A stretch of 64,000 nucleotides of DNA from an uncultured bacterium (GCA_942492765.1 OW818634.1:409159-473158); one strand, 5' to 3'. Positions 4,964-60,100 are shown, counted from the stretch's first letter. A program made the numbers and translations. The notes: generated from the letters alone by a model not told the origin.

Positions 4964-6862
4964 TTACATGCCTGCTTCTTCTTGGCGGCTTTCATCGAAT
5001 TCCTTCTTAGCTTCTTCTAATTCGAGCAGCTGGCGCGGATCAGAGGTAATTAACTGATCTTCGGTATAAGAGGCGACCGCTTTCATGGCGACGTGCTTAT
5101 TGCCAGCGAAGAAGATGCCTTCGCCGACGCCGCATTCTAACAACAGATATTTCTCGCCCTCAGTCAGCATGAAAGTCTTCTGAATCAGGTCGATGGCGGC
5201 CGGCGACTGCTTGAATAATAGCTGCAAAGAAGAATTATTAACAATGGCCTGGCCATAGGGAGAGGTTAAGAAATCATTAACATCTTGCGTAATGGTCGTG
5301 ACGCCCAGATAATACTTACGGCAGCGCTTGACGAGGGCGAAGATGAATTTAGCTGAATCTTCATGCTGCATCATCCACCAGGCTTCATCGATGACTAGGA
5401 TGCGCTTCTTCATCTCGCTGCGGACGACATTCCAGATATAATTGACGATGGTATAAATAGCGATCGGACGGAGCTCATCTTCCAGATCGCGGACCGAGAA
5501 GCAGACGAGCTGATTGCTCATCTCGACGTTAGTCTGATTATTGAGCAAGCCGGCAAAAGTTCCCTCGGTAAATTTGCGCAGACGCAACGCTAAATCCGTA
5601 CCGCCTTCCATGCCGTCAAGAATCTGCTCGAAATCAGCCATGATTGGCGCTTCAATCTTGGATAAATCGGAATCCGGAGTAATATCCTTCTTAGCATAAG
5701 TTTCTAATAAGGCGCGGTCAACGATAGAATCCTCATCATAGCTCAGATTGCCTAACATCAGGCGCACTAAGCCTTTAAGCGTAATGACAGCGCTGCGGAT
5801 GATGTCTTTCGGTTTCGCTTCCCCGCCGATAGAACGCGGGAGATCGAACGGATTAATCTTATTCTCGGAAGACAAGGAAATGTTTATATAGGTGCCGCCG
5901 ACGGCTTCAGCCAGATGCTTGTATTCATATTCCGGATCAATAACAATGACGTCGGTGCCGAGCATCAAAGAGCGCAGGATCTCTAATTTGATCGCATAAC
6001 TCTTGCCGGCGCCGGAGGTAGCGAAGACCACGGAGTTGGCATTCTGAAGAGTGAAGCGGTCAAACAGGATCAAGCTGTTATTATGGCGGTTGATGCCATA
6101 TAAGATACCTTGATCGCTTGTGAGCTCGCTAGAAATGAAGGGGAAAGACGAGGCGATCGGCGAAGAATTCATGTTGAAGGTGATATATAATTCATCGTCG
6201 CCCAAAGGCAGAGTCGAATTGAATCCCTGTTCTGACTGATAATAGACGCGGCGGGAATAGACTAGGCGTGAACCAAAGACATCCTCGACCTGATCGCTCA
6301 GGCGATCCAGATCTTCGAGCTTGTCAGCGTATAAGGTGACATACAAGGCGAACTGGAAGAATTTTTCCGTTCCCTGGGTGAGCGCATCGCGCAGGTATTC
6401 GATATCGCGCAAAGCGGTTTCTCGCAACGGATCACGAGCAGCGCCCTTCTCCGCGTCAGAAACTATCTGCGCTTCCAAAGCGCCGACCTTATTCTTTAGT
6501 TGCTTCAAGATAATCGCGCTCTTGACCTGATAGAAGAACATCGAGACGTCGAAGGTCACGTTCAGATTGATTATCGGCGCGAACCAGCCGACAGAGATAT
6601 AGCGCGGATAAGAAACGATGAAAATAGTGCGCAAGAACTTATTGCCCAAAGCGAGGTGATTGGCTTCGACTTTAAGGCTAGCCGGAGCGATGATATCGCG
6701 GACGGATAAGACGCCGCGGCGGAAAGCCTTCTCTTCCTCGATGATCTCCCGAGTCAATTCCGGATTCTCCTCAATCGGATGCGCCACGGGCTTAACCCCG
6801 ATAGTAATCGGGGTATTAAGGCCTATCTTATTCTTTTCTTCTTTCTTGCTGAAATCGATCAT
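4964..6862 (-). CDS. VirB4/TrbE/TraC-type type IV secretion ATPase
   Basis: Walker A ATSGAGKSY and Walker B ILVIDEAWWMM. The N-terminal domain pattern (IAPASL...RTIFIVSYP) is typical of VirB4-like proteins. Confidence 0.85.
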   Translation of the reverse strand: MIDFSKKEEKNKIGLNTPITIGVKPVAHPIEENPELTREIIEEEKAFRRGVLSVRDIIAPASLKVEANHLALGNKFLRTIFIVSYPRYISVGWFAPIINLNVTFDVSMFFYQVKSAIILKQLKNKVGALEAQIVSDAEKGAARDPLRETALRDIEYLRDALTQGTEKFFQFALYVTLYADKLEDLDRLSDQVEDVFGSRLVYSRRVYYQSEQGFNSTLPLGDDELYITFNMNSSPIASSFPFISSELTSDQGILYGINRHNNSLILFDRFTLQNANSVVFATSGAGKSYAIKLEILRSLMLGTDVIVIDPEYEYKHLAEAVGGTYINISLSSENKINPFDLPRSIGGEAKPKDIIRSAVITLKGLVRLMLGNLSYDEDSIVDRALLETYAKKDITPDSDLSKIEAPIMADFEQILDGMEGGTDLALRLRKFTEGTFAGLLNNQTNVEMSNQLVCFSVRDLEDELRPIAIYTIVNYIWNVVRSEMKKRILVIDEAWWMMQHEDSAKFIFALVKRCRKYYLGVTTITQDVNDFLTSPYGQAIVNNSSLQLLFKQSPAAIDLIQKTFMLTEGEKYLLLECGVGEGIFFAGNKHVAMKAVASYTEDQLITSDPRQLLELEEAKKEFDESRQEEAGM

Positions 6863-6868
6863 ATTAGT

Positions 6869-7549
6869 TTATTTCTCTACCCTGAGCTTGTCTAAATCGA
6901 CTAATTCCTGGTTCTGAGAGGTTTCCGGGTTATAGGTCTTATAATAAAGCTCAATCAGGCTCTGGGTATCTAAGCGGGCGACGGCGACGCCGAGCGATTC
7001 TAGGCCGCCGGTGACGCTGTCGATGCGGCGATCAAGCATCTCCTGATAATTCTTAAAGGTTTTTTCCTTAAGCTTGATGACAGTCGCCGGCTTAAGCGCT
7101 TCGCTCAATAGGCTCATGAAACCTTTATGCTTATCAGTCAGCGGGTCATAAGGAACAATCACGTAAAAACGCTTATTCATGATCTTGCCCAAGGAGGTCA
7201 GCTCTTTGATATATTCGATATAGTCGGCGGTCTGAACTTTCAATAATTTATTCATCTGCTCCTTCTCTTTATTCTTCAAGTATTCCAGATAATTATTGAT
7301 GTCTAATTCGCGGGACTGGATGACGATCTGGAGCGTGAAGGTCAGATTATTCAAGAAGCGGACATAAGAATCAATAACCGCATTCTGTTCGTCTTCGCTC
7401 TTGAGCGCGAAATTTATACTGGAAACGAGAAGCACGGCGCGCAAAGTGCCATCCTTCATCACGACGGTGTTATCCTTAATCTCAGCAATATTCAGATATT
7501 GCTGGGTAGAAGAGCTTATTTTATTCTTAGCCAATCCTTTTTCCGGCAT
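6869..7549 (-). CDS. Hypothetical T4SS-associated protein resembling the non-ATPase N-terminal domain of VirB4-type proteins
   Basis: 226-aa ORF packed tightly between the PrgI-like and VirB4-like genes. Contains YLNIAEIKDNTVVMKDGTLRAVLLVSSINFALKSEDEQ and no Walker motifs. Confidence 0.5.
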   Translation of the reverse strand: MPEKGLAKNKISSSTQQYLNIAEIKDNTVVMKDGTLRAVLLVSSINFALKSEDEQNAVIDSYVRFLNNLTFTLQIVIQSRELDINNYLEYLKNKEKEQMNKLLKVQTADYIEYIKELTSLGKIMNKRFYVIVPYDPLTDKHKGFMSLLSEALKPATVIKLKEKTFKNYQEMLDRRIDSVTGGLESLGVAVARLDTQSLIELYYKTYNPETSQNQELVDLDKLRVEK

Positions 7550-52913: not shown

Positions 52914-53108
52914 TTATTTCTTCCTGAACAACATGACTAAGCCAAAAATGAGCCAAAGAAGCAAAAGATAATTCAAGTTAAAGTAGGCCAAGACAATATT
53001 CGGCCAGATGATTTCCAGGGCGATGAAGACAAGCCCCAAAGCGGTCAGAAAATAAAAGATTTCTCTGACCAGCAAGCTTCTATTGGTTATAATTTCTAGC
53101 TTACTCAT
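52914..53108 (-). CDS. Small two-TM membrane protein
   Basis: ATG at 53108 lies 1 nt after the upstream stop, and hydrophobic segments are present. The track start at 53141 overlaps the upstream gene. Confidence 0.45.
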   Translation of the reverse strand: MSKLEIITNRSLLVREIFYFLTALGLVFIALEIIWPNIVLAYFNLNYLLLLWLIFGLVMLFRKK

Positions 53109-53109
53109 A

Positions 53110-54600
53110 TTATTTTCTGAGGATTTCCTTAATCTTTTCAAAAACAGTCTTCCCCGTCAGTCTTATCTTGATCTCCTGGATATCCAAATAATTGGCTGCC
53201 CCAGCCGCGCCGTCCAAACCGGGGATGGAGATTAAAAAAACATACTTATTCTTCTCATTAACAGATTCCTTCAGATTCAGAGTCGCGCGCGCCGTCTTAA
53301 TTCTATCTTCCTCTAAGGGACGCTCGTAATCAGCGATGATATATTTGATATTGTCCGCTGGAAAAAAATAGCGATCAACCTTCTGTGCTCCGGGATTGAC
53401 TAGGCTAGTGGAAGAAAAAGCGAAGACGCCGTTATTTTCCAAGACTAGATCATCCTTGTCAAGAATAATCTTATTAATTCCGCTTCCGGCCTGAAAAGAA
53501 AATTGTTTATAGGTCTTATCGAGAGCAAATCTATCGCCGCCGAAACTGACTTTACCGAGAGAAGCCGGATTTACAGTTGAAATGCCGAGATAAGAAGCAT
53601 CGGTAAATAAAATTAGACTACCCTTCCCCGATACCGGCCAAATCTTATTAATGAAAGAGATCTTATCAGATGAACTATTAAGCTTTGACATCACGATATC
53701 ATCGCTGACTTTGATTTCGACGCGATATAGCCCCGCAGCTTTCTGCCCGCTTAAAGTCAGGCTCTTATTTTCACTCTGGCCATTATCAGGCGTCGGGTTA
53801 TTATCAATTAGGGTCTTAGTGGCGATGACATTATCCCCCGCATAAACATTGACTGTAATTGGATCCTGTTCTTTGTCCAAATTCAAATCGACGAAATCAA
53901 AAGCCAGGCGCCAAGAAGAGGCTTGAAAGTAGACATAAAATTGGTGCGCACCCCTCAAGGGCTGACTGATGACTGTTGGATCAGGCGAAACATAGCCGGG
54001 CAAACGGAACTCAGAATTAAACTGATAATTATAAGTCGCGACGCAAGCCGTCGGACCGTTCGGGCATGCCTGCAAATTTCCGTCTTCCAAATCTTTTTCA
54101 AATTCGGCCGGATTATCATAGTATTTTTCTGTCTGCAAAACTAGGTGGCCGTCCTCATCTGCTAAGCGCGGCCATGAGAAACGATAGCGATCGATGATAT
54201 TATTCTGAAGAGGCTGAAGCTCATATTGCCCAGTCAGCTTATCCCTTAAGACACCAATCTCGATTATTGGCGTCGCTGTCGCCAGCTGATCACGATACCT
54301 GACAGTTATTTCCGCCTGATCAAATAGGCGCGGCGCATACAGGCTAAAATATAACGGCTCGGCCACCAGCCTTAATGACGAAGAACTGGCGTCTAGCCGT
54401 TCAGCTGGCTTAAAATCATAAATGAATCCTTTACCAGAAGCTAATCCCCGCGGCCAAGTCCGGCTATAGGTAATATGGCCGAAAGGGACAATTTTCAGGC
54501 ACACAAAAAGAAGCACTAAAATCAGGGTAATTAACCCTAAAATAAGGCGTATTTTAAACAAAAATGACCTTTTTTCCCAAAAGGATCTTAATTTCTTCAT
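53110..54600 (-). CDS. Membrane-anchored hypothetical protein (beta-rich extracytoplasmic domain)
   Basis: 496-aa ORF with an N-terminal TM helix and no motif I can name. Confidence 0.6.
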   Translation of the reverse strand: MKKLRSFWEKRSFLFKIRLILGLITLILVLLFVCLKIVPFGHITYSRTWPRGLASGKGFIYDFKPAERLDASSSSLRLVAEPLYFSLYAPRLFDQAEITVRYRDQLATATPIIEIGVLRDKLTGQYELQPLQNNIIDRYRFSWPRLADEDGHLVLQTEKYYDNPAEFEKDLEDGNLQACPNGPTACVATYNYQFNSEFRLPGYVSPDPTVISQPLRGAHQFYVYFQASSWRLAFDFVDLNLDKEQDPITVNVYAGDNVIATKTLIDNNPTPDNGQSENKSLTLSGQKAAGLYRVEIKVSDDIVMSKLNSSSDKISFINKIWPVSGKGSLILFTDASYLGISTVNPASLGKVSFGGDRFALDKTYKQFSFQAGSGINKIILDKDDLVLENNGVFAFSSTSLVNPGAQKVDRYFFPADNIKYIIADYERPLEEDRIKTARATLNLKESVNEKNKYVFLISIPGLDGAAGAANYLDIQEIKIRLTGKTVFEKIKEILRK

Positions 54601-54628
54601 ATCTCTATTTTACTTTATTTTTAGTAAT

Positions 54629-54651
54629 AAAAAAAGGGCGAATAAAGCCCC
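54629..54651 (-). terminator. Second (tandem) terminator downstream of the rSAM gene
   Basis: Minus-strand GGGC...GCCC stem (54047-type numbering not used; plus-strand 54036-style positions are 54636-54639 and 54647-54650), followed by a run of 7 U. Confidence 0.4.
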
Positions 54652-54664
54652 AGATATTCAACTT

Positions 54665-54704
54665 ATAAAAAGAGCCATTAGGGGATAAAATCCGATAATG
54701 GCTC
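54665..54704 (-). terminator. Rho-independent terminator closing the RiPP-like cassette
   Basis: 9-bp stem, GAGCCATTA (54672-54680) paired with TAATGGCTC (54696-54704). The loop is 15 nt and a U-run follows on the minus strand. Confidence 0.6.
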
Positions 54705-54715
54705 GCAAATACTTA

Positions 54716-56014
54716 CTATGGGTTAATAAGATACGCAAATTCTTTCCTTATTAGAAGCCCGATAATTTTAATAAAGGCTTCTCGCGTCGAATTTTCAGCT
54801 CCATTTTTTAACAATTCCGAAACTGATAATGGCGAGGACTCTGCTAGCCAGCAGACAAAATGAAACATTTCTTCATTAACAACAATAAGATTTCCACCAC
54901 CATTTTTAGAAGAAATGGAGTAATTTTTATCTTCTCGCCGCCAGCGAAGCTTTCCATTAAAATGCACGACTGAATAATCGTTAATGTCCGTTTTGACTTC
55001 CCTCTTGGGGGGTAGACTAATCGGCCCGATGGTTAAACGATCTTGTTTATTTAACAGGCCAAACGATGCCAAAGAATTTGTCCGGCAAGCCCCATTGCAA
55101 GACGATACCGTCGAACAACATTTACAAATATCTGGAACGACATCATTTCTATAAGAAACCATCTTGCCCCAAATTCCACTTAATGTTTCATGAAAAATAT
55201 TTCCATAAACATTCGGGTTGTGCGAACAGGGGCGAACATCTCCGACGTTAGAGATGCTGACAGACATTCGACCAGCCTGGCACGATCGCTTCGTAAAAGA
55301 ATAGTCTTTTTCCCAACACCAGCTTGGCAAAAAACATTTTGGCAGCGGCTCCAATATATCAACCTCTAGCTTGAGATTATCGGCGCACCATCTTAAATCA
55401 TCTAATAAAGAAATGGTCTGATGACCGCTAAGCAATTCCTCAAGATTGGGATGTTCGACATTAAGTCCGGCTGGAGTTGCAGCGAATCTTTTGACTCCTA
55501 AATCACGCATATCAGATGCTGTAGTCTTAATAAATTCACGATTAACTGGAGTAACTACCATATTAATCATGCAGGAGATACCAACTTCTGATAGCAACTT
55601 AATTTTTTCACGCAACCGATTATAGTCGCCGCAACGAGTGATATGCCTATAAACATCGGGGTCGCTTGCCGGACATGACACCAAGAAACTATCAATCCCG
55701 GACTCTTTAAAATCAAGAGCTAATTCTGGAGTGAGTAGCAAAAGATTTGTGTTGATAGAAACAAACATGCCGGCATTTTTTGCAGCTTTTACGGCGTTAA
55801 CGGCTAAATTAGGACGAGCCAAAGGCTCGCCACCGGTAATTACTAAGGAATAAATTTTAGCGTCTACCATCTTTTGAACCAGCAACATAACATCCTCATC
55901 TTCCAAATCATTAGATTTTGGCATACTGCTGGTATCAAAGCGGTAACAGTGCTTACAGCGCAAATTACAGATATCTGTAATTTCCAACTGGACATGCGTT
56001 GGCAATCTTAACAT
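54716..56014 (-). CDS. Radical SAM enzyme with a SPASM auxiliary-cluster domain and a PqqD/RRE-like C-terminal extension (peptide maturase)
   Basis: CNLRCKHC (Cx3Cx2C, aa 16-23), GGEPL (aa 61-65), and the SPASM pattern C245-x12-G-x4-C263 ... C297-x2-C300-x5-C306-x3-C310. A perfect SD, AAGGAGGT, lies 6 nt upstream of the ATG. Confidence 0.9.
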   Translation of the reverse strand: MLRLPTHVQLEITDICNLRCKHCYRFDTSSMPKSNDLEDEDVMLLVQKMVDAKIYSLVITGGEPLARPNLAVNAVKAAKNAGMFVSINTNLLLLTPELALDFKESGIDSFLVSCPASDPDVYRHITRCGDYNRLREKIKLLSEVGISCMINMVVTPVNREFIKTTASDMRDLGVKRFAATPAGLNVEHPNLEELLSGHQTISLLDDLRWCADNLKLEVDILEPLPKCFLPSWCWEKDYSFTKRSCQAGRMSVSISNVGDVRPCSHNPNVYGNIFHETLSGIWGKMVSYRNDVVPDICKCCSTVSSCNGACRTNSLASFGLLNKQDRLTIGPISLPPKREVKTDINDYSVVHFNGKLRWRREDKNYSISSKNGGGNLIVVNEEMFHFVCWLAESSPLSVSELLKNGAENSTREAFIKIIGLLIRKEFAYLINP

Positions 56015-56056
56015 GACTTACCTCCTTTTTTTTTCAAATTATTAAAGATCGGTTAA

Positions 56057-56638
56057 TTATTTAAATTGATTTAAAATTTTTGAAAAATAATCCTTGGTAA
56101 AATTAAAATTAAAAATCTTATAAAAATTAATAGCAAACCGTCTACGATTAACCGCGGGGTTAAAGCTATTTATTAATTTCAAAAATTTTATTTTACCGTA
56201 TTTTTTTATAAAATATTCTACCCAAAATTGCCCCACCATATAAGCATCTTTGTCTGCCTTGTCAAAATAATCAAAGATATTTAAAAGCTTATCTTTATAT
56301 CCATCTTTCAAAATTAATTTTTTTCCGGAAACAAAAGATGCCAGGCCTTCATTCAGCCAAATTGGATAGTGACTTTGGGTTATCTGGGTATAATAATAAT
56401 GACAATACTCATGTTTTAGCGTTTCCCAAAACTCTCTTTTCTTATGGCTAGATTCTTTAGCATATACTGCGGGATTCAGAATATAAATACTATTATTCTT
56501 AAAGGCGCCAACAAACCAACGTTCCGTTTTCTTGCCCCAAATAATATCCAGGTCCTCCCTACAATCCAATAAAAACAATAGTGGTTCACGAGCTTCAAAA
56601 TCAAAAAAATCATCCAATTCTTTTTTTGTTTTTTCCAA
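56057..56638 (-). CDS. Putative gluzincin (peptidase MA-like) metalloprotease, a candidate leader peptidase
   Basis: Contains HEYCH...WLNEGLA (HExxH-x16-E with an NEG context like the M1 / Peptidase_MA_2 families). Very AT-rich. The start is uncertain (TTG 56638, no SD). Confidence 0.6.
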   Translation of the reverse strand: MEKTKKELDDFFDFEAREPLLFLLDCREDLDIIWGKKTERWFVGAFKNNSIYILNPAVYAKESSHKKREFWETLKHEYCHYYYTQITQSHYPIWLNEGLASFVSGKKLILKDGYKDKLLNIFDYFDKADKDAYMVGQFWVEYFIKKYGKIKFLKLINSFNPAVNRRRFAINFYKIFNFNFTKDYFSKILNQFK

Positions 56639-56714
56639 GAATTGAACTAACTTTTTGTTAGCTTTTACTGATTTTATAGATAAATATTTTTTTATATATT
56701 TATACGCCTATTTT

Positions 56715-56754
56715 TTAAAAAAAGTCGCCACGACTCTATTGCTATCATGGCGAC
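56715..56754 (-). terminator. Intra-operon terminator/attenuator right after the precursor ORF
   Basis: On the minus strand GUCGCCA (56754-56748) pairs with UGGCGAC (56730-56724). The loop is 17 nt and 7 U follow (56723-56717). Confidence 0.5.
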
Positions 56755-56776
56755 ATAATTGACTCCTCTGCTGCTC

Positions 56777-56902
56777 TTAATTTGGGCTGTCACAATCACA
56801 GCCAGAGCCTTCACCGCCGCTAGCATCGCAATTACTTTCGCCATTAGGAGCTTCTGATAAGGCGATAATTTGCATGCTGTCAAATTTGAATTCCTTTTTC
56901 AT
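56777..56902 (-). CDS. 41-aa Cys/Asp-rich candidate RiPP precursor peptide, not in the ORF track
   Basis: By hand translation it reads MKKEFKFDSMQIIALSEAPNGESNCDASGGEGSGCDCDSPN. An SD-like AAAGGAAAGGA ends 7 nt before the ATG. It lies between a consensus promoter and a terminator, upstream of the peptidase and rSAM/SPASM genes. Confidence 0.6.
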   Translation of the reverse strand: MKKEFKFDSMQIIALSEAPNGESNCDASGGEGSGCDCDSPN

Positions 56903-57013
56903 GATCAAATCCTTTCCTTTTCTTTATTAACGTTATTTGACTCTTCGGGTCGAAACTCTTTTAAGCTTCGCTTAGCAATATGCCCCTTAAATATCTAAAA
57001 AGAACTTATCCAC

Positions 57014-57042
57014 ATAATATCCATTAAAGATGTTTTTGTCAA
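57014..57042 (-). promoter_or_regulatory. Sigma70-type promoter TTGACA-N17-TATTAT driving the precursor/RiPP cassette
   Basis: Minus strand reads TTGACA (57042-57037), a 17-nt spacer, then TATTAT (57019-57014). It lies about 110 nt upstream of the precursor ATG. Confidence 0.6.
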
Positions 57043-57060
57043 TAGAGAGCATATAGGGCC

Positions 57061-57089
57061 AAAAAAAAGAAACCCCAGTCAGGGGCTTC
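57061..57089 (-). terminator. Rho-independent terminator of rpoC
   Basis: On the minus strand GAAGCCCC pairs with GGGGUUUC (8 bp, one G-U pair). The loop is UGACU and 8 U follow (57068-57061). Confidence 0.7.
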
Positions 57090-57116
57090 TTTTTATATTA
57101 AAACTCTTAATTTCCT

Positions 57117-60100
57117 TTATTTCCCGTAGTCCATTCTCGCCTTCTTGCCCTTATAGCCGGTTCCGGCCGGGATTAGGCAGCCGATAATGACATTCTCTTT
57201 CAAGCCCTCGAGATAATCGATCTTGCCGTTAACCGCGGCATCGATCAAAACACGGGAAGTCTCTTGGAAAGAGGCGGCTGATAAGAAGCTATCGGTCGTC
57301 AAAGATGCTTTAGTGATACCCATGAGCAAGCGATCGGCCTTAGCCGGATTCTTCAAGCCCTTATTAGCCTGTTCGAGCACCTCTTCTTCGACAGTTTCGC
57401 CGGACAAGACCATAGCGTCGCCGGCATCGGTAATCAGATAGCGAGAGAACATCTGGCGGGCGATGATCTCAACGTGCTTATCGTTCAAAGGCTGGCCTTG
57501 AGAACCATAGACGTATTGGATTTCCTTGATGATGTATTTCTGAGTCTCTAGACGTCCTTTCAACTTGTATAATTCGCGCAGATCAAGACTGCCTTCAGTC
57601 AGCTGCGTGCCTCTCTCGATCGCCTCGCCATCCTTGACCATCATCATAGTTCCCTTCAAAATCGGATATTCTTTGACTTTTTCGACTTCTTTGGCAATAG
57701 AAATATATTTTTCCGTAACCGCGGCTATGCCATTAGTCTTAGCCTTGACGATTTCGGCTCCAACCTTGAACAGCTCGGTATTCTTAGAGACATTCTCGCC
57801 ATCCTTGACCAGCACCTTGACCTCTAATTTCTTAGTGTCCTTGGCGCTTAGGCCTCCAGCCAGCTTAAGCTCGTTGACCTTCTCGGAAAAATAATATTTA
57901 TCATGATCCTTGCCTTTATAATAGATGCTCAAGATCTTGGTCTGCGGATTGTTGACGGAAATCTCTTTGCCGTCCTTATCCTTGATAATCTTCTGAGCAA
58001 ATTCGATCTTAACCTTGCCGGTAACGTCGGAAATAAGCGCTTTCTTCTTCGGGCTGCGCGCTTCAAAGATTTCTTCGACGCGAGGCAGACCCTGGGTGAT
58101 ATCATCTTGGCCGGCGACGCCTCCCGTATGGAAGGTTCTCATCGTCAGCTGCGTGCCTGGTTCGCCGATAGACTGCGCCGCAATCGTGCCGACAGTCGAG
58201 CCCATCTTAACCTCCTTATTGTAAGCCAGATCCCAACCATAGCACTTCGCGCAGATGCCCTTATGCATCTTGCAGCTAAGCACCGATCGGACGCAAGCCT
58301 GTTCGATATCCTTAGTCTTTGCTAATTTGATATTTTCTTCATTTAAGAGTTCTCCGGTCTTCAAGACAACTTTGCCCTTATTATCTAAGAGGTCCTTGGC
58401 TAAGAAACGGCCGGTCAGGCGCTTGAAGAAATCTTCGCCATTCTTCTCTATTTCCGCGCGGCTCAGATCGAGACCGACGGTATCGCCGCAATCGTCATCG
58501 GAAATGATGATATCTTGAGCGACATCGACTAAGCGGCGAGTCAGATAACCGGCGTTAGCGGTTCTAAGAGCGGTATCAGACAAACCTTTGCGGACGCCGT
58601 GAGTGGAAATGAAATATTCGAGAACGCCGAAGCCTTCTTTGAAGTTTCCTTTGACTGGAAGTTCGAAAATAGCGCCGGAAGGAGAGGTAACCAAGCCCTT
58701 CATGCCCAAGATCTGAACCGGCTGAGCCCAAGAACCGCGGGCTCCAGATTCGATCATGGAATAAACCGGCAAGATATTGATCAAGCCTTTCTTACAGATA
58801 GTCGCGATCTTATCTTTGGTTCCGGTCCATTCTTCGATGACTTTGGCGTAGCGTTCGCTCTCGGTCAATAAGCCTTCGTTATACTGCTCCTGAATAAGCT
58901 CTACCTTCTTATTCGCCTCTTCAATCAGTAAATCCTTCTCTGGCAAGCTCGGCAAGTCGCCGAAGCCCCAAGACAAGCCGGACTTAGTGATGAAGGCGAA
59001 GCTGCGATTCTTCAAGCCGTCGATGAACTTGACGGTCTCTTCTTCGCCATATATTCTCAGACATTCACGGATCAAATCTTTTAATTTGCCCTTACCGACG
59101 ACTTCGTTAAGATAACGGAGCTTCTCCGGCAATAAGGAGTTGAAGATCAGGCGGCCGACGGTAGTCTTCAGCATCTCGCCGTCATATTTGACGTTGATAG
59201 CCTCATGCAAGCCGATGCCATTGCTTTCGTAAGCTAAATAAGCCTCGTCTTCATTATAGAAATAATGCATGTCTTCCTTCTTCTTGTCGGCGTAGTCGGC
59301 TTCCACTAAAGTAATATAATAAGTTCCCCAGACGATGTCCTGGGCTGGAGTGACGATCGGATCGCCAGTAGCCGGTTTCAATAAGTTATGGGAAGACAGC
59401 ATCAAGGTTTCCGCCTCGTGTTTAGCTTCCTTAGTCAAAGGCACATGAACGGCCATCTGGTCGCCATCGAAGTCGGCATTGAAAGCCGTACAAACGAGCG
59501 GATGAATCTGGATAGCCTTGCCTTCGATCAGGATCGGGCGGAAAGCTTGGATACCTAAGCGATGCAGGGTCGGAGCGCGATTCAACAATACAAAGGCGCC
59601 TTTGATAATCTCTTCTAAGATATCCCAAACCTCGTCATGCCCAGCTTCCATATAACGGGAAGCGCTGCGCACGTTATGAACGATCTCGCGCTTAATGAGC
59701 TGAGAAATGACGAACGGCTTGAATAGCTCTAAAGCCATGATCTTCGGCAAACCGCATTGATCGAGATTCAAGCGCGGATTGACGACGATGACGGAGCGGC
59801 CGGAATAGTCGACGCGCTTGCCTAATAGATTCTGGCGGAAGCGGCCCTGTTTGCCTTTCAAAGTATCAGCTAAGGATTTCAATTGGCGCTTCTGGCCAGT
59901 CGAAGCCGTAACCGTCTTGGTGTGGCGGGCGGAATTGTCAATCAAAGCATCGACCGCTTCCTGAAGCATGCGCTTCTCGTTGCGGCAGATGACTTCCGGA
60001 GCATTAAGGTCCATGAGCTGCTTTAAGCGATTATTGCGGTTGATGATGCGGCGATAAAGATCATTAAGATCAGAGGCCGCGAAACGGCCGCCGTCTAAAG

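Follow-up and report, generated by a model that had tools for sequence, protein, structure and literature searches.

In radical S-adenosylmethionine (SAM) enzymes that mature peptides made on ribosomes and modified after translation (RiPPs), the RiPP recognition element (RRE) is generally N-terminal, as in CteB, SkfB, SuiB and AlbA, or is a discrete protein, as with PqqD, MftB and StsC (PMC8326336, PMC10288494). C-terminal RREs are carried by the proteusin radical SAM epimerases (PMC7470986, PMC8326336), whose PoyD-type members possess the radical SAM cluster only, with neither auxiliary clusters nor a SPASM domain (PMC8326336), and by the daptide enzyme MpaB, in which removal of the RRE abolishes processing (PMC10036551). 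The stretch of uncultured bacterial DNA analysed here (GCA_942492765.1, OW818634.1:409159-473158; 64,000 nucleotides, hereafter the window) encoded on its minus strand a 432-aa radical SAM/SPASM maturase, the last residues of which (~347-432) are likely to form a C-terminal PqqD-type RRE; a three-gene RiPP cassette includes this enzyme as its maturase. An earlier note on this DNA, made from the sequence alone, had considered a C-terminal RRE unusual, which holds for SPASM enzymes and fails for RiPP enzymes generally, as the proteusin epimerases and MpaB illustrate. No report of an RRE following a SPASM domain was found in the literature searched, which is weak evidence as few subscription journals were covered. 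The parts themselves are known, and only the placement of the RRE after the SPASM domain appears to be new. Such a domain order is uncommon, and the family showing it is small, uncharacterised and predicted to modify short Cys/Asp-rich peptides.

The maturase was identified as a single open reading frame (ORF) in the ORF listing of the window, and its domain layout was established from Pfam searches, AlphaFold2 models and an alignment of the maturase with 46 relatives (alignment A1; 47 sequences, 28-71% identical overall), as follows:

54716..56014, minus strand: radical SAM/SPASM maturase gene with a C-terminal RRE-like domain (ORF, Pfam, AlphaFold2 model)
55520..55984, minus strand: radical SAM core, residues 11-165, with the CxxxCxxC motif at C16/C20/C23 (Pfam PF04055; cysteines invariant in A1)
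55085..55336, minus strand: SPASM auxiliary-cluster region, residues 227-310 (Pfam PF13186 and invariant A1 columns)
54977..55084, minus strand: helix and extended linker, residues 311-346, joining the SPASM region to the C-terminal domain (full-length model)
54719..54976, minus strand: RRE/PqqD-like domain, residues 347-432 (AlphaFold2, Foldseek, profile homology)

The Radical_SAM family PF04055 matched residues 11-165 (E 3.5e-26), and the SPASM family PF13186 matched residues 245-300 just over its cut-off (22.7 versus 21.5 bits). Seven SPASM cysteines were invariant in A1 (C227, C245, C263, C297, C300, C306 and C310), with a CxxCx5Cx3C motif spanning residues 297-310, so that the maturase presented the SPASM cysteine pattern for putative auxiliary [4Fe-4S] clusters. 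C310 was the last of these cysteines, and 122 residues lay beyond it, in agreement with the extension of about 120 aa described in the earlier note. The extension sequence quoted there was also found in the translation: positions 54725-54982 on the minus strand translated to NDYSVVHFNGKLRWRREDKNYSISSKNGGGNLIVVNEEMFHFVCWLAESSPLSVSELLKNGAENSTREAFIKIIGLLIRKEFAYLI (residues 345-430), which adds two to three residues at each end. The radical SAM motif begins at residue 16, too close to the start of the protein for an N-terminal domain to precede it.

Structure prediction gave the extension the fold of an RRE. With 35 family domains as input, AlphaFold2 modelled residues 338-432 with a mean predicted local distance difference test score (pLDDT) of 88.8 and a predicted template modelling score (pTM) of 0.79. 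In the numbering of this domain model, it contained strands 12-15, 20-24, 27-31 and 40-42, helices 44-56, 61-68 and 74-86, and a strand 90-93, corresponding to the three-stranded sheet followed by three helices of the RRE fold, with one additional strand at either end. The same elements were present in the full-length model (pLDDT 93.5, pTM 0.92) as strands 349-352, 357-361, 364-368 and 377-379, helices 381-393, 398-405 and 411-423, and strand 427-430, preceded by a helix (311-318) and a segment without regular structure up to strand 349 (pLDDT 80-93 over this block). The pTM of 0.92 indicates that, in this model, the C-terminal domain packs against the catalytic core. When the domain model was compared with the PDB using Foldseek, RRE-bearing RiPP proteins filled about 34 of the 41 highest rows, with matches including ThcOx, PbtF, MccB, TbiB1, McbB, TbtB, LynD and CteB. 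The elements aligned in sequence order with the RRE-only chains of PbtF (8t19; TM 0.63 on the 86-residue target) and of leader-bound TbiB1 (5v1v; TM 0.58). Both the order of strands followed by helices, which had been likened to a PqqD-type RRE from the sequence alone, and the RRE fold that was to be looked for by structure prediction and Foldseek were recovered in this way.

The top PDB folds for the full-length model were SkfB, SuiB, PqqE, TigE and anSME (E ~1e-15 to 1e-12), with SkfB, SuiB and PqqE at E ~1e-15, and the catalytic core is therefore that of a standard RiPP-type SPASM enzyme. These alignments extended over at most ~355 columns and never covered the C-terminal domain, and no solved structure with a domain at this position was found in the Foldseek search of the full-length model against the PDB. 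The logic is the same in CteB (5why), SuiB (5v1q), SkfB (6efn) and AlbA, where an N-terminal RRE is combined with a radical SAM domain and auxiliary clusters, the substrate being a leader-core peptide, but the domain order is reversed in the window enzyme, and the alignments end at ~340-355 columns.

Homology to PqqD and MftB was detected at the profile level. Among 1.84 billion representative proteins, a profile of the C-terminal domain built from the 35 family domains (A2) reached P0238, a 92-aa protein, at E 8e-4. P0238 is a bona fide PF05402 PqqD protein (E 1.1e-7, 32.5 bits against a cut-off of 23.4) that is also labelled MftB_chaperone in the precomputed annotation, so that the remote-homology check gave a positive outcome as well. 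An hhalign comparison of A2 with P0238 gave a probability of 95.2% (E 2.6e-8, 83 columns), the aligned columns taking in both the R-x-E strand and, ahead of helix 1, the V-N motif. The C-terminal domain of the relative P0120 matched positions 7-82 of the 85 of the MftB model TIGR03967 under the cut-off (E 2.6e-4) and, weakly, positions 358-434 of the 446 of the PoyD model (E 0.036). Three distant fused relatives (P0213, P0230 and P0236) retained the canonical R-x-E-x-F-G-G, likewise after the SPASM domain, whereas the window domain lacks the F-G-G part. A word-indexed protein search with the R-x-E-x-F-G-G profile (A4) returned three proteins, and a pattern search of genome contigs with A3 returned 80 loci, all unrelated radical SAM genes, the patterns being generic radical SAM motifs.

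Like PqqD (PF05402) and MftB (TIGR03967/PF26520), the window domain comprises ~85-95 aa with three strands followed by three helices, an R-x-E strand motif and a hydrophobic-Asn motif before helix 1, and it is tied to a SPASM enzyme in the way that PqqD and MftB partner the SPASM enzymes PqqE and MftC on a short peptide. Unlike these discrete proteins, it is fused to the C-terminus of the enzyme, does not reach the Pfam or NCBIfam thresholds and has no F-G-G, and the window precursor is unrelated to PqqA or MftA. Taken on its own, the assignment of the domain as an RRE-fold homologue of PqqD/MftB is very probably correct.

The extension was conserved across the family. With the threshold at E<=1e-10, a search of 5.8 billion protein clusters yielded 858 relatives, of which the top 120 were mostly 425-450 aa in length with query coverage of 98-100%, and their annotations included four Patescibacteria-group relatives (among them Komeilibacteria), one from Planctomycetes and one from Vibrio parahaemolyticus. 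Of the 86 extension positions, 70 or more were covered in every one of the 46 aligned relatives; R359 never varied, and E361, N380 and L421 hardly did, which marks the extension as a conserved domain and no chance tail. Its mean identity to the window protein was lower than that of the catalytic part (0.29 versus 0.45), as expected for a recognition module tracking its substrate. With the A2 profile, 132 matches were obtained at E<=1e-3 (HMMER, same 1.84 billion proteins), about 50 of them in proteins of at least 400 aa, where the match always fell within the last ~100 residues; no full-length relative was found with the domain anywhere but at the C-terminus. Among the remaining matches were many fragments, along with a set of stand-alone proteins 82-96 aa long. 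With 132 representatives at 50% identity, the family is a small one, and it lies outside every curated NCBIfam family. One 215-aa protein, P0215, contained three tandem repeats (...KRSRLMLLDEELIEFLSYLK...) and matched the domain profile at E 1.2e-4 over the strand 3/helix 1 segment only; these repeats are probably unrelated to the RRE-like domain.

The genomic context was that of a RiPP cassette, in which the precursor gene, a gene for an HExxH protein and the maturase gene followed one another on the minus strand, with the following features besides the maturase:

56777..56902, minus strand (ATG at 56902, stop at 56777): 41-aa precursor peptide gene, MKKEFKFDSMQIIALSEAPNGESNCDASGGEGSGCDCDSPN (sequence and related precursors)
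56057..56638, minus strand: 193-aa HExxH protein (LKHEYCHYYY), putative leader peptidase (motif and weak Pfam matches)
57014..57042, minus strand: promoter-like site TTGACA-17-TATTAT, 11/12 matches, upstream of the precursor gene (consensus scan)
54635..54651, minus strand: terminator-like hairpin and T-run downstream of the maturase stop (consensus scan, suggestive only)

The precursor contains FKFDSM in its leader and NCDASGGEGSGCDCDSPN as its core. An RRE-like domain fused to a RiPP-modifying enzyme beside a precursor gene was found in the window and in eight related loci, in all eight of which the enzyme adjoined a short ORF with a Cys-Asp/Glu-rich C-terminus. In seven of these loci the peptides were:

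L001, enzyme P0023: precursor MKFDFTKMSLRPPVQSPGVDHQACCDADGSESSGCDCDCNKD
L087, enzyme P0017: precursor MSFNFKEMEVASFSSVGNCDGSGSEGSGCECESGSND
L002 (Vibrio), enzyme P0076: precursor MEKYNFDDMVCYVV...CYCDYDCDGDC...
L004 (Planctomycetes), enzyme P0051: ORF ending ...KFNFGKM...CDSCHICDANCDSCHSCDCDSCDC...
L085, enzyme P0074: precursor ...VDFEVMEIVDASAEYSDCDCDCDSGDIDNY
L088, enzyme P0048: precursor ...EDFPAMQMLPLVIVDNCYNCDC...
L086, enzyme P0104: more divergent peptide without F-x-x-M

An F-x-x-M motif, usually F/Y-x-F-x-x-M, was present in the leader of eight of the nine precursors, a count of at least eight that was reached in none of 20000 leader shuffles. In P0070, from locus L003, a precursor-like sequence, ...SDFAAMQVLPLSVVDNCFCDCDSGGCDCDTCNCDSCDAGT, directly followed the RRE-like domain in the same reading frame. 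This frame (L003 4001-5485) was free of stops from the RRE-like domain into ...MLNPNVTSDFAAMQVLPLSVVDNCFCDCDSGGCDCDTCNCDSCDAGT, with an HExxH gene next; either enzyme and substrate are naturally fused in P0070, or the precursor is translated separately from an in-frame ATG inside the gene. The P0017 precursor (L087 1627-1740) had C-E-C-E in place of C-D-C-D; across the precursors an acidic residue after each Cys was conserved, while its identity as Asp or Glu varied.

The HExxH protein matched Peptidase_MA_2, M1 and SprT-like families in Pfam, all under cut-offs, and its gene occupied the equivalent place in L001, L003, L087 and L088. An HExxH protein was the usual peptidase partner, with a BSP-like or transglutaminase-core protein in some loci: L086 (4561-6558) encoded a BSP-like peptidase together with a second radical SAM/SPASM gene (388 aa), and transglutaminase-core proteins were encoded near the cassette in L085 (4977-5447) and L088 (5160-5708). 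As had been read from the window sequence, the cassette possessed no separate RRE gene; none was found in it or in the eight related loci, and no neighbour was annotated as PqqD. An RRE hidden in the HExxH protein or in the downstream 496-aa protein was considered and rejected, as neither had such a Pfam match. By comparison, the stand-alone PqqD/MftB-like gene of P0238 begins 10 bp past the stop of a SPASM enzyme gene (L089 1-777), an arrangement that is the split counterpart of the fused SPASM-RRE order. The fusion would most likely have arisen from such a gene pair, with a discrete RRE gene directly downstream of the SPASM enzyme gene.

Together, these features suggest how the enzyme may work. 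The domain probably binds the leader, in which case the RRE would capture the conserved part surrounding F-x-x-M, which in the window reads FKFDSMQII. The leader could add as an extra beta-strand beside strand 377-379, which precedes the conserved Asn380, and pack on helix 411-423. Such tethering would let the Cys-Asp/Glu-rich core reach the radical SAM/SPASM active site, where the radical chemistry would most plausibly make thioether cross-links from Cys to neighbouring acidic residues. This chemistry is suggested because the core pairs Cys with acidic residues, because Glu replaces Asp in L087, and because of the precedent of PapB, which is reported to link Cys to Asp at spacings of zero to six and to accept Glu for Asp (PMC9413430). 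The cores of PapB ranthipeptides likewise pair Cys with Asp/Glu, as the C-D repeats of the window-family precursors (C-E in L087) do, but the PapB model scored only 61.1 bits on the window enzyme against a cut-off of 340. The HExxH peptidase may then cleave off the leader.

Several observations weigh against a leader-binding RRE at this position, and they bear on three other explanations. An RRE fold is no guarantee of leader binding: the SuiB leader sits in the active-site region, away from the RRE (PMC8326336), and the RREs of TrnC and TrnD mediate enzyme-enzyme contact (PMC12093266). The C-terminal domain could accordingly be a structural cap or a docking surface for other proteins (dimerisation, HExxH recruitment), with the leader read by the catalytic barrel and the bridging region; its tight packing on the core in the full-length model (pTM 0.92) and the loss of the F-G-G kept by distant relatives are in line with this. 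On the other hand, the conserved R359, E361 and N380 map to the strand region aligned with PqqD by hhalign, a short leader motif is conserved across phyla, the cassettes lack any other RRE, and the precursor is fused straight after the domain in one relative (P0070). An RRE fold that does not bind the leader is consequently rather unlikely, although it is the strongest of the three. The direct sequence searches also gave little: with hmmscan, neither the window domain nor any one of the 35 family domains matched PF05402 at E<=10, Pfam scans of the C-terminal 88-112 residues and of these 35 domains returned noise and scattered helix-turn-helix families only, and in NCBIfam the window's own domain had no match, only three distant members matching MftB, all under the cut-off. 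The same caution applies to the chemistry, which could not be assigned to a family by score, every NCBIfam maturase family being far under its cut-off for the window enzyme (GeoRSP, the best, 100.8 bits against 400; StsB 84.6/625; AlbA 62.6/850; PapB 61.1/340; MftC 58/265). The outcome was the same for seven relatives, with StsB, AlbA and SkfB far under their cut-offs.

Against the PDB, the A2 and A4 profiles matched generic winged-helix proteins first, namely eS25 (E 7e-5 to 4e-3) and ADAR Z-alpha, with MarR, IclR and AdcR also among the best matches, and the SuiB RRE region appeared in these profile searches only at E 0.29. Combined with the scattered Pfam helix-turn-helix matches among family members, this could indicate a winged helix-turn-helix domain of the ordinary kind, binding nucleic acids or regulating the operon, with no role in peptide recognition. 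Those matches, however, were confined to the helical half of the domain (profile positions ~35-90); they fit the winged-helix ancestry of RREs and leave the strand region unexplained, whereas the PqqD/MftB matches include the N-terminal strands with R-x-E. Moreover, helix 3 is hydrophobic and near-neutral (mean charge +0.6), unlike a basic DNA-recognition helix, the structural neighbours are RiPP RREs and not transcription factors, and in all full-length cases the domain forms part of a peptide maturase, all of which makes a nucleic-acid-binding role highly improbable. The single Foldseek E-values were weak (0.03-0.6), none of them individually significant, and this, with the missing direct Pfam match of the window domain, might be taken to mean that the segment is a family-specific SPASM extension without a separate function, resembling an RRE by chance. 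It is however modelled as a separate domain beyond a 30-residue linker, it exists as stand-alone proteins of ~85-95 aa, and its profile-level link to PF05402 is significant against 1.84 billion proteins, so that a chance resemblance is just as hard to credit. The reading of the extension as a PqqD-type RRE of a RiPP cassette remains the favoured one.

Placed beside the other enzymes with a C-terminal RRE, the window enzyme resembles the PoyD-type epimerases (TIGR04517) in being a radical SAM peptide-modifying enzyme, but it differs from them in having a SPASM domain and a 41-aa precursor, proteusin precursors having long NHLP-type leaders. Membership of the proteusin epimerases was rejected, as the SPASM domain is present and one relative weakly matches the C-terminal part of PoyD only. 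Daptide MpaB shares the C-terminal RRE, but it is a non-radical-SAM protein, and its enzyme class and pathway are unrelated.

The promoter-like sites in the consensus scan were in total as numerous as expected from shuffles, so the site upstream of the precursor gene is only suggestive. Directly after the precursor stop, a short inverted repeat with a T-run (gagtcgtggcgacttttttt; 56716-56745, minus strand), absent from the consensus-scan list, might act as a partial terminator between the precursor and enzyme genes. Downstream of the cassette, on the minus strand, were genes for two further proteins, one of 496 aa with a membrane segment at its N-terminus (53110-54600) and the other a 75-aa membrane protein (52914-53141), both with sub-threshold Pfam matches only and neither conserved next to related maturases. 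Within positions 54000-58000, the GC content of the cassette was 0.38-0.41 compared to 0.47-0.50 in the surroundings, which contain housekeeping genes such as rpoC and murJ, and related cassettes adjoined a serine recombinase (L001 7559-8869) or a phage-type integrase (L002, Vibrio, 5805-7040). The low GC of the cassette and the recombinase and integrase neighbouring its relatives suggest that the three-gene unit moves horizontally.

It is possible, if somewhat short of probable, that the cassette represents an undescribed RiPP class, which would be defined by an F-x-x-M leader, a Cys-Asp/Glu-repeat core, an HExxH or other peptidase and a SPASM maturase recognising its substrate via a C-terminal RRE, with a cross-link pattern not yet described. 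Small mobile cassettes would be the vehicle of such a class in likely Patescibacteria (annotated as such for four relatives and presumed for the window), Planctomycetes and Vibrio, and it would include one single-frame fusion of enzyme and substrate.

Independently of class, RiPP gene clusters are located mainly by detecting their RREs, and clusters of this kind may be missed or mis-scored because the family escapes the standard PqqD model and its RRE is unexpectedly placed. With its RRE C-terminal to the SPASM domain, the enzyme would need a peptide path into the active site differing from that of CteB or SuiB, which would make the family a useful comparison for how leader binding positions the core peptide. 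If the enzyme makes Cys-Asp thioethers at adjacent positions, it could also serve as a compact peptide-stapling tool. The Cys-Asp/Glu-repeat peptides are uncharacterised products, several of them belonging to relatives with a Patescibacteria annotation, and little is known about secondary metabolism in that group.

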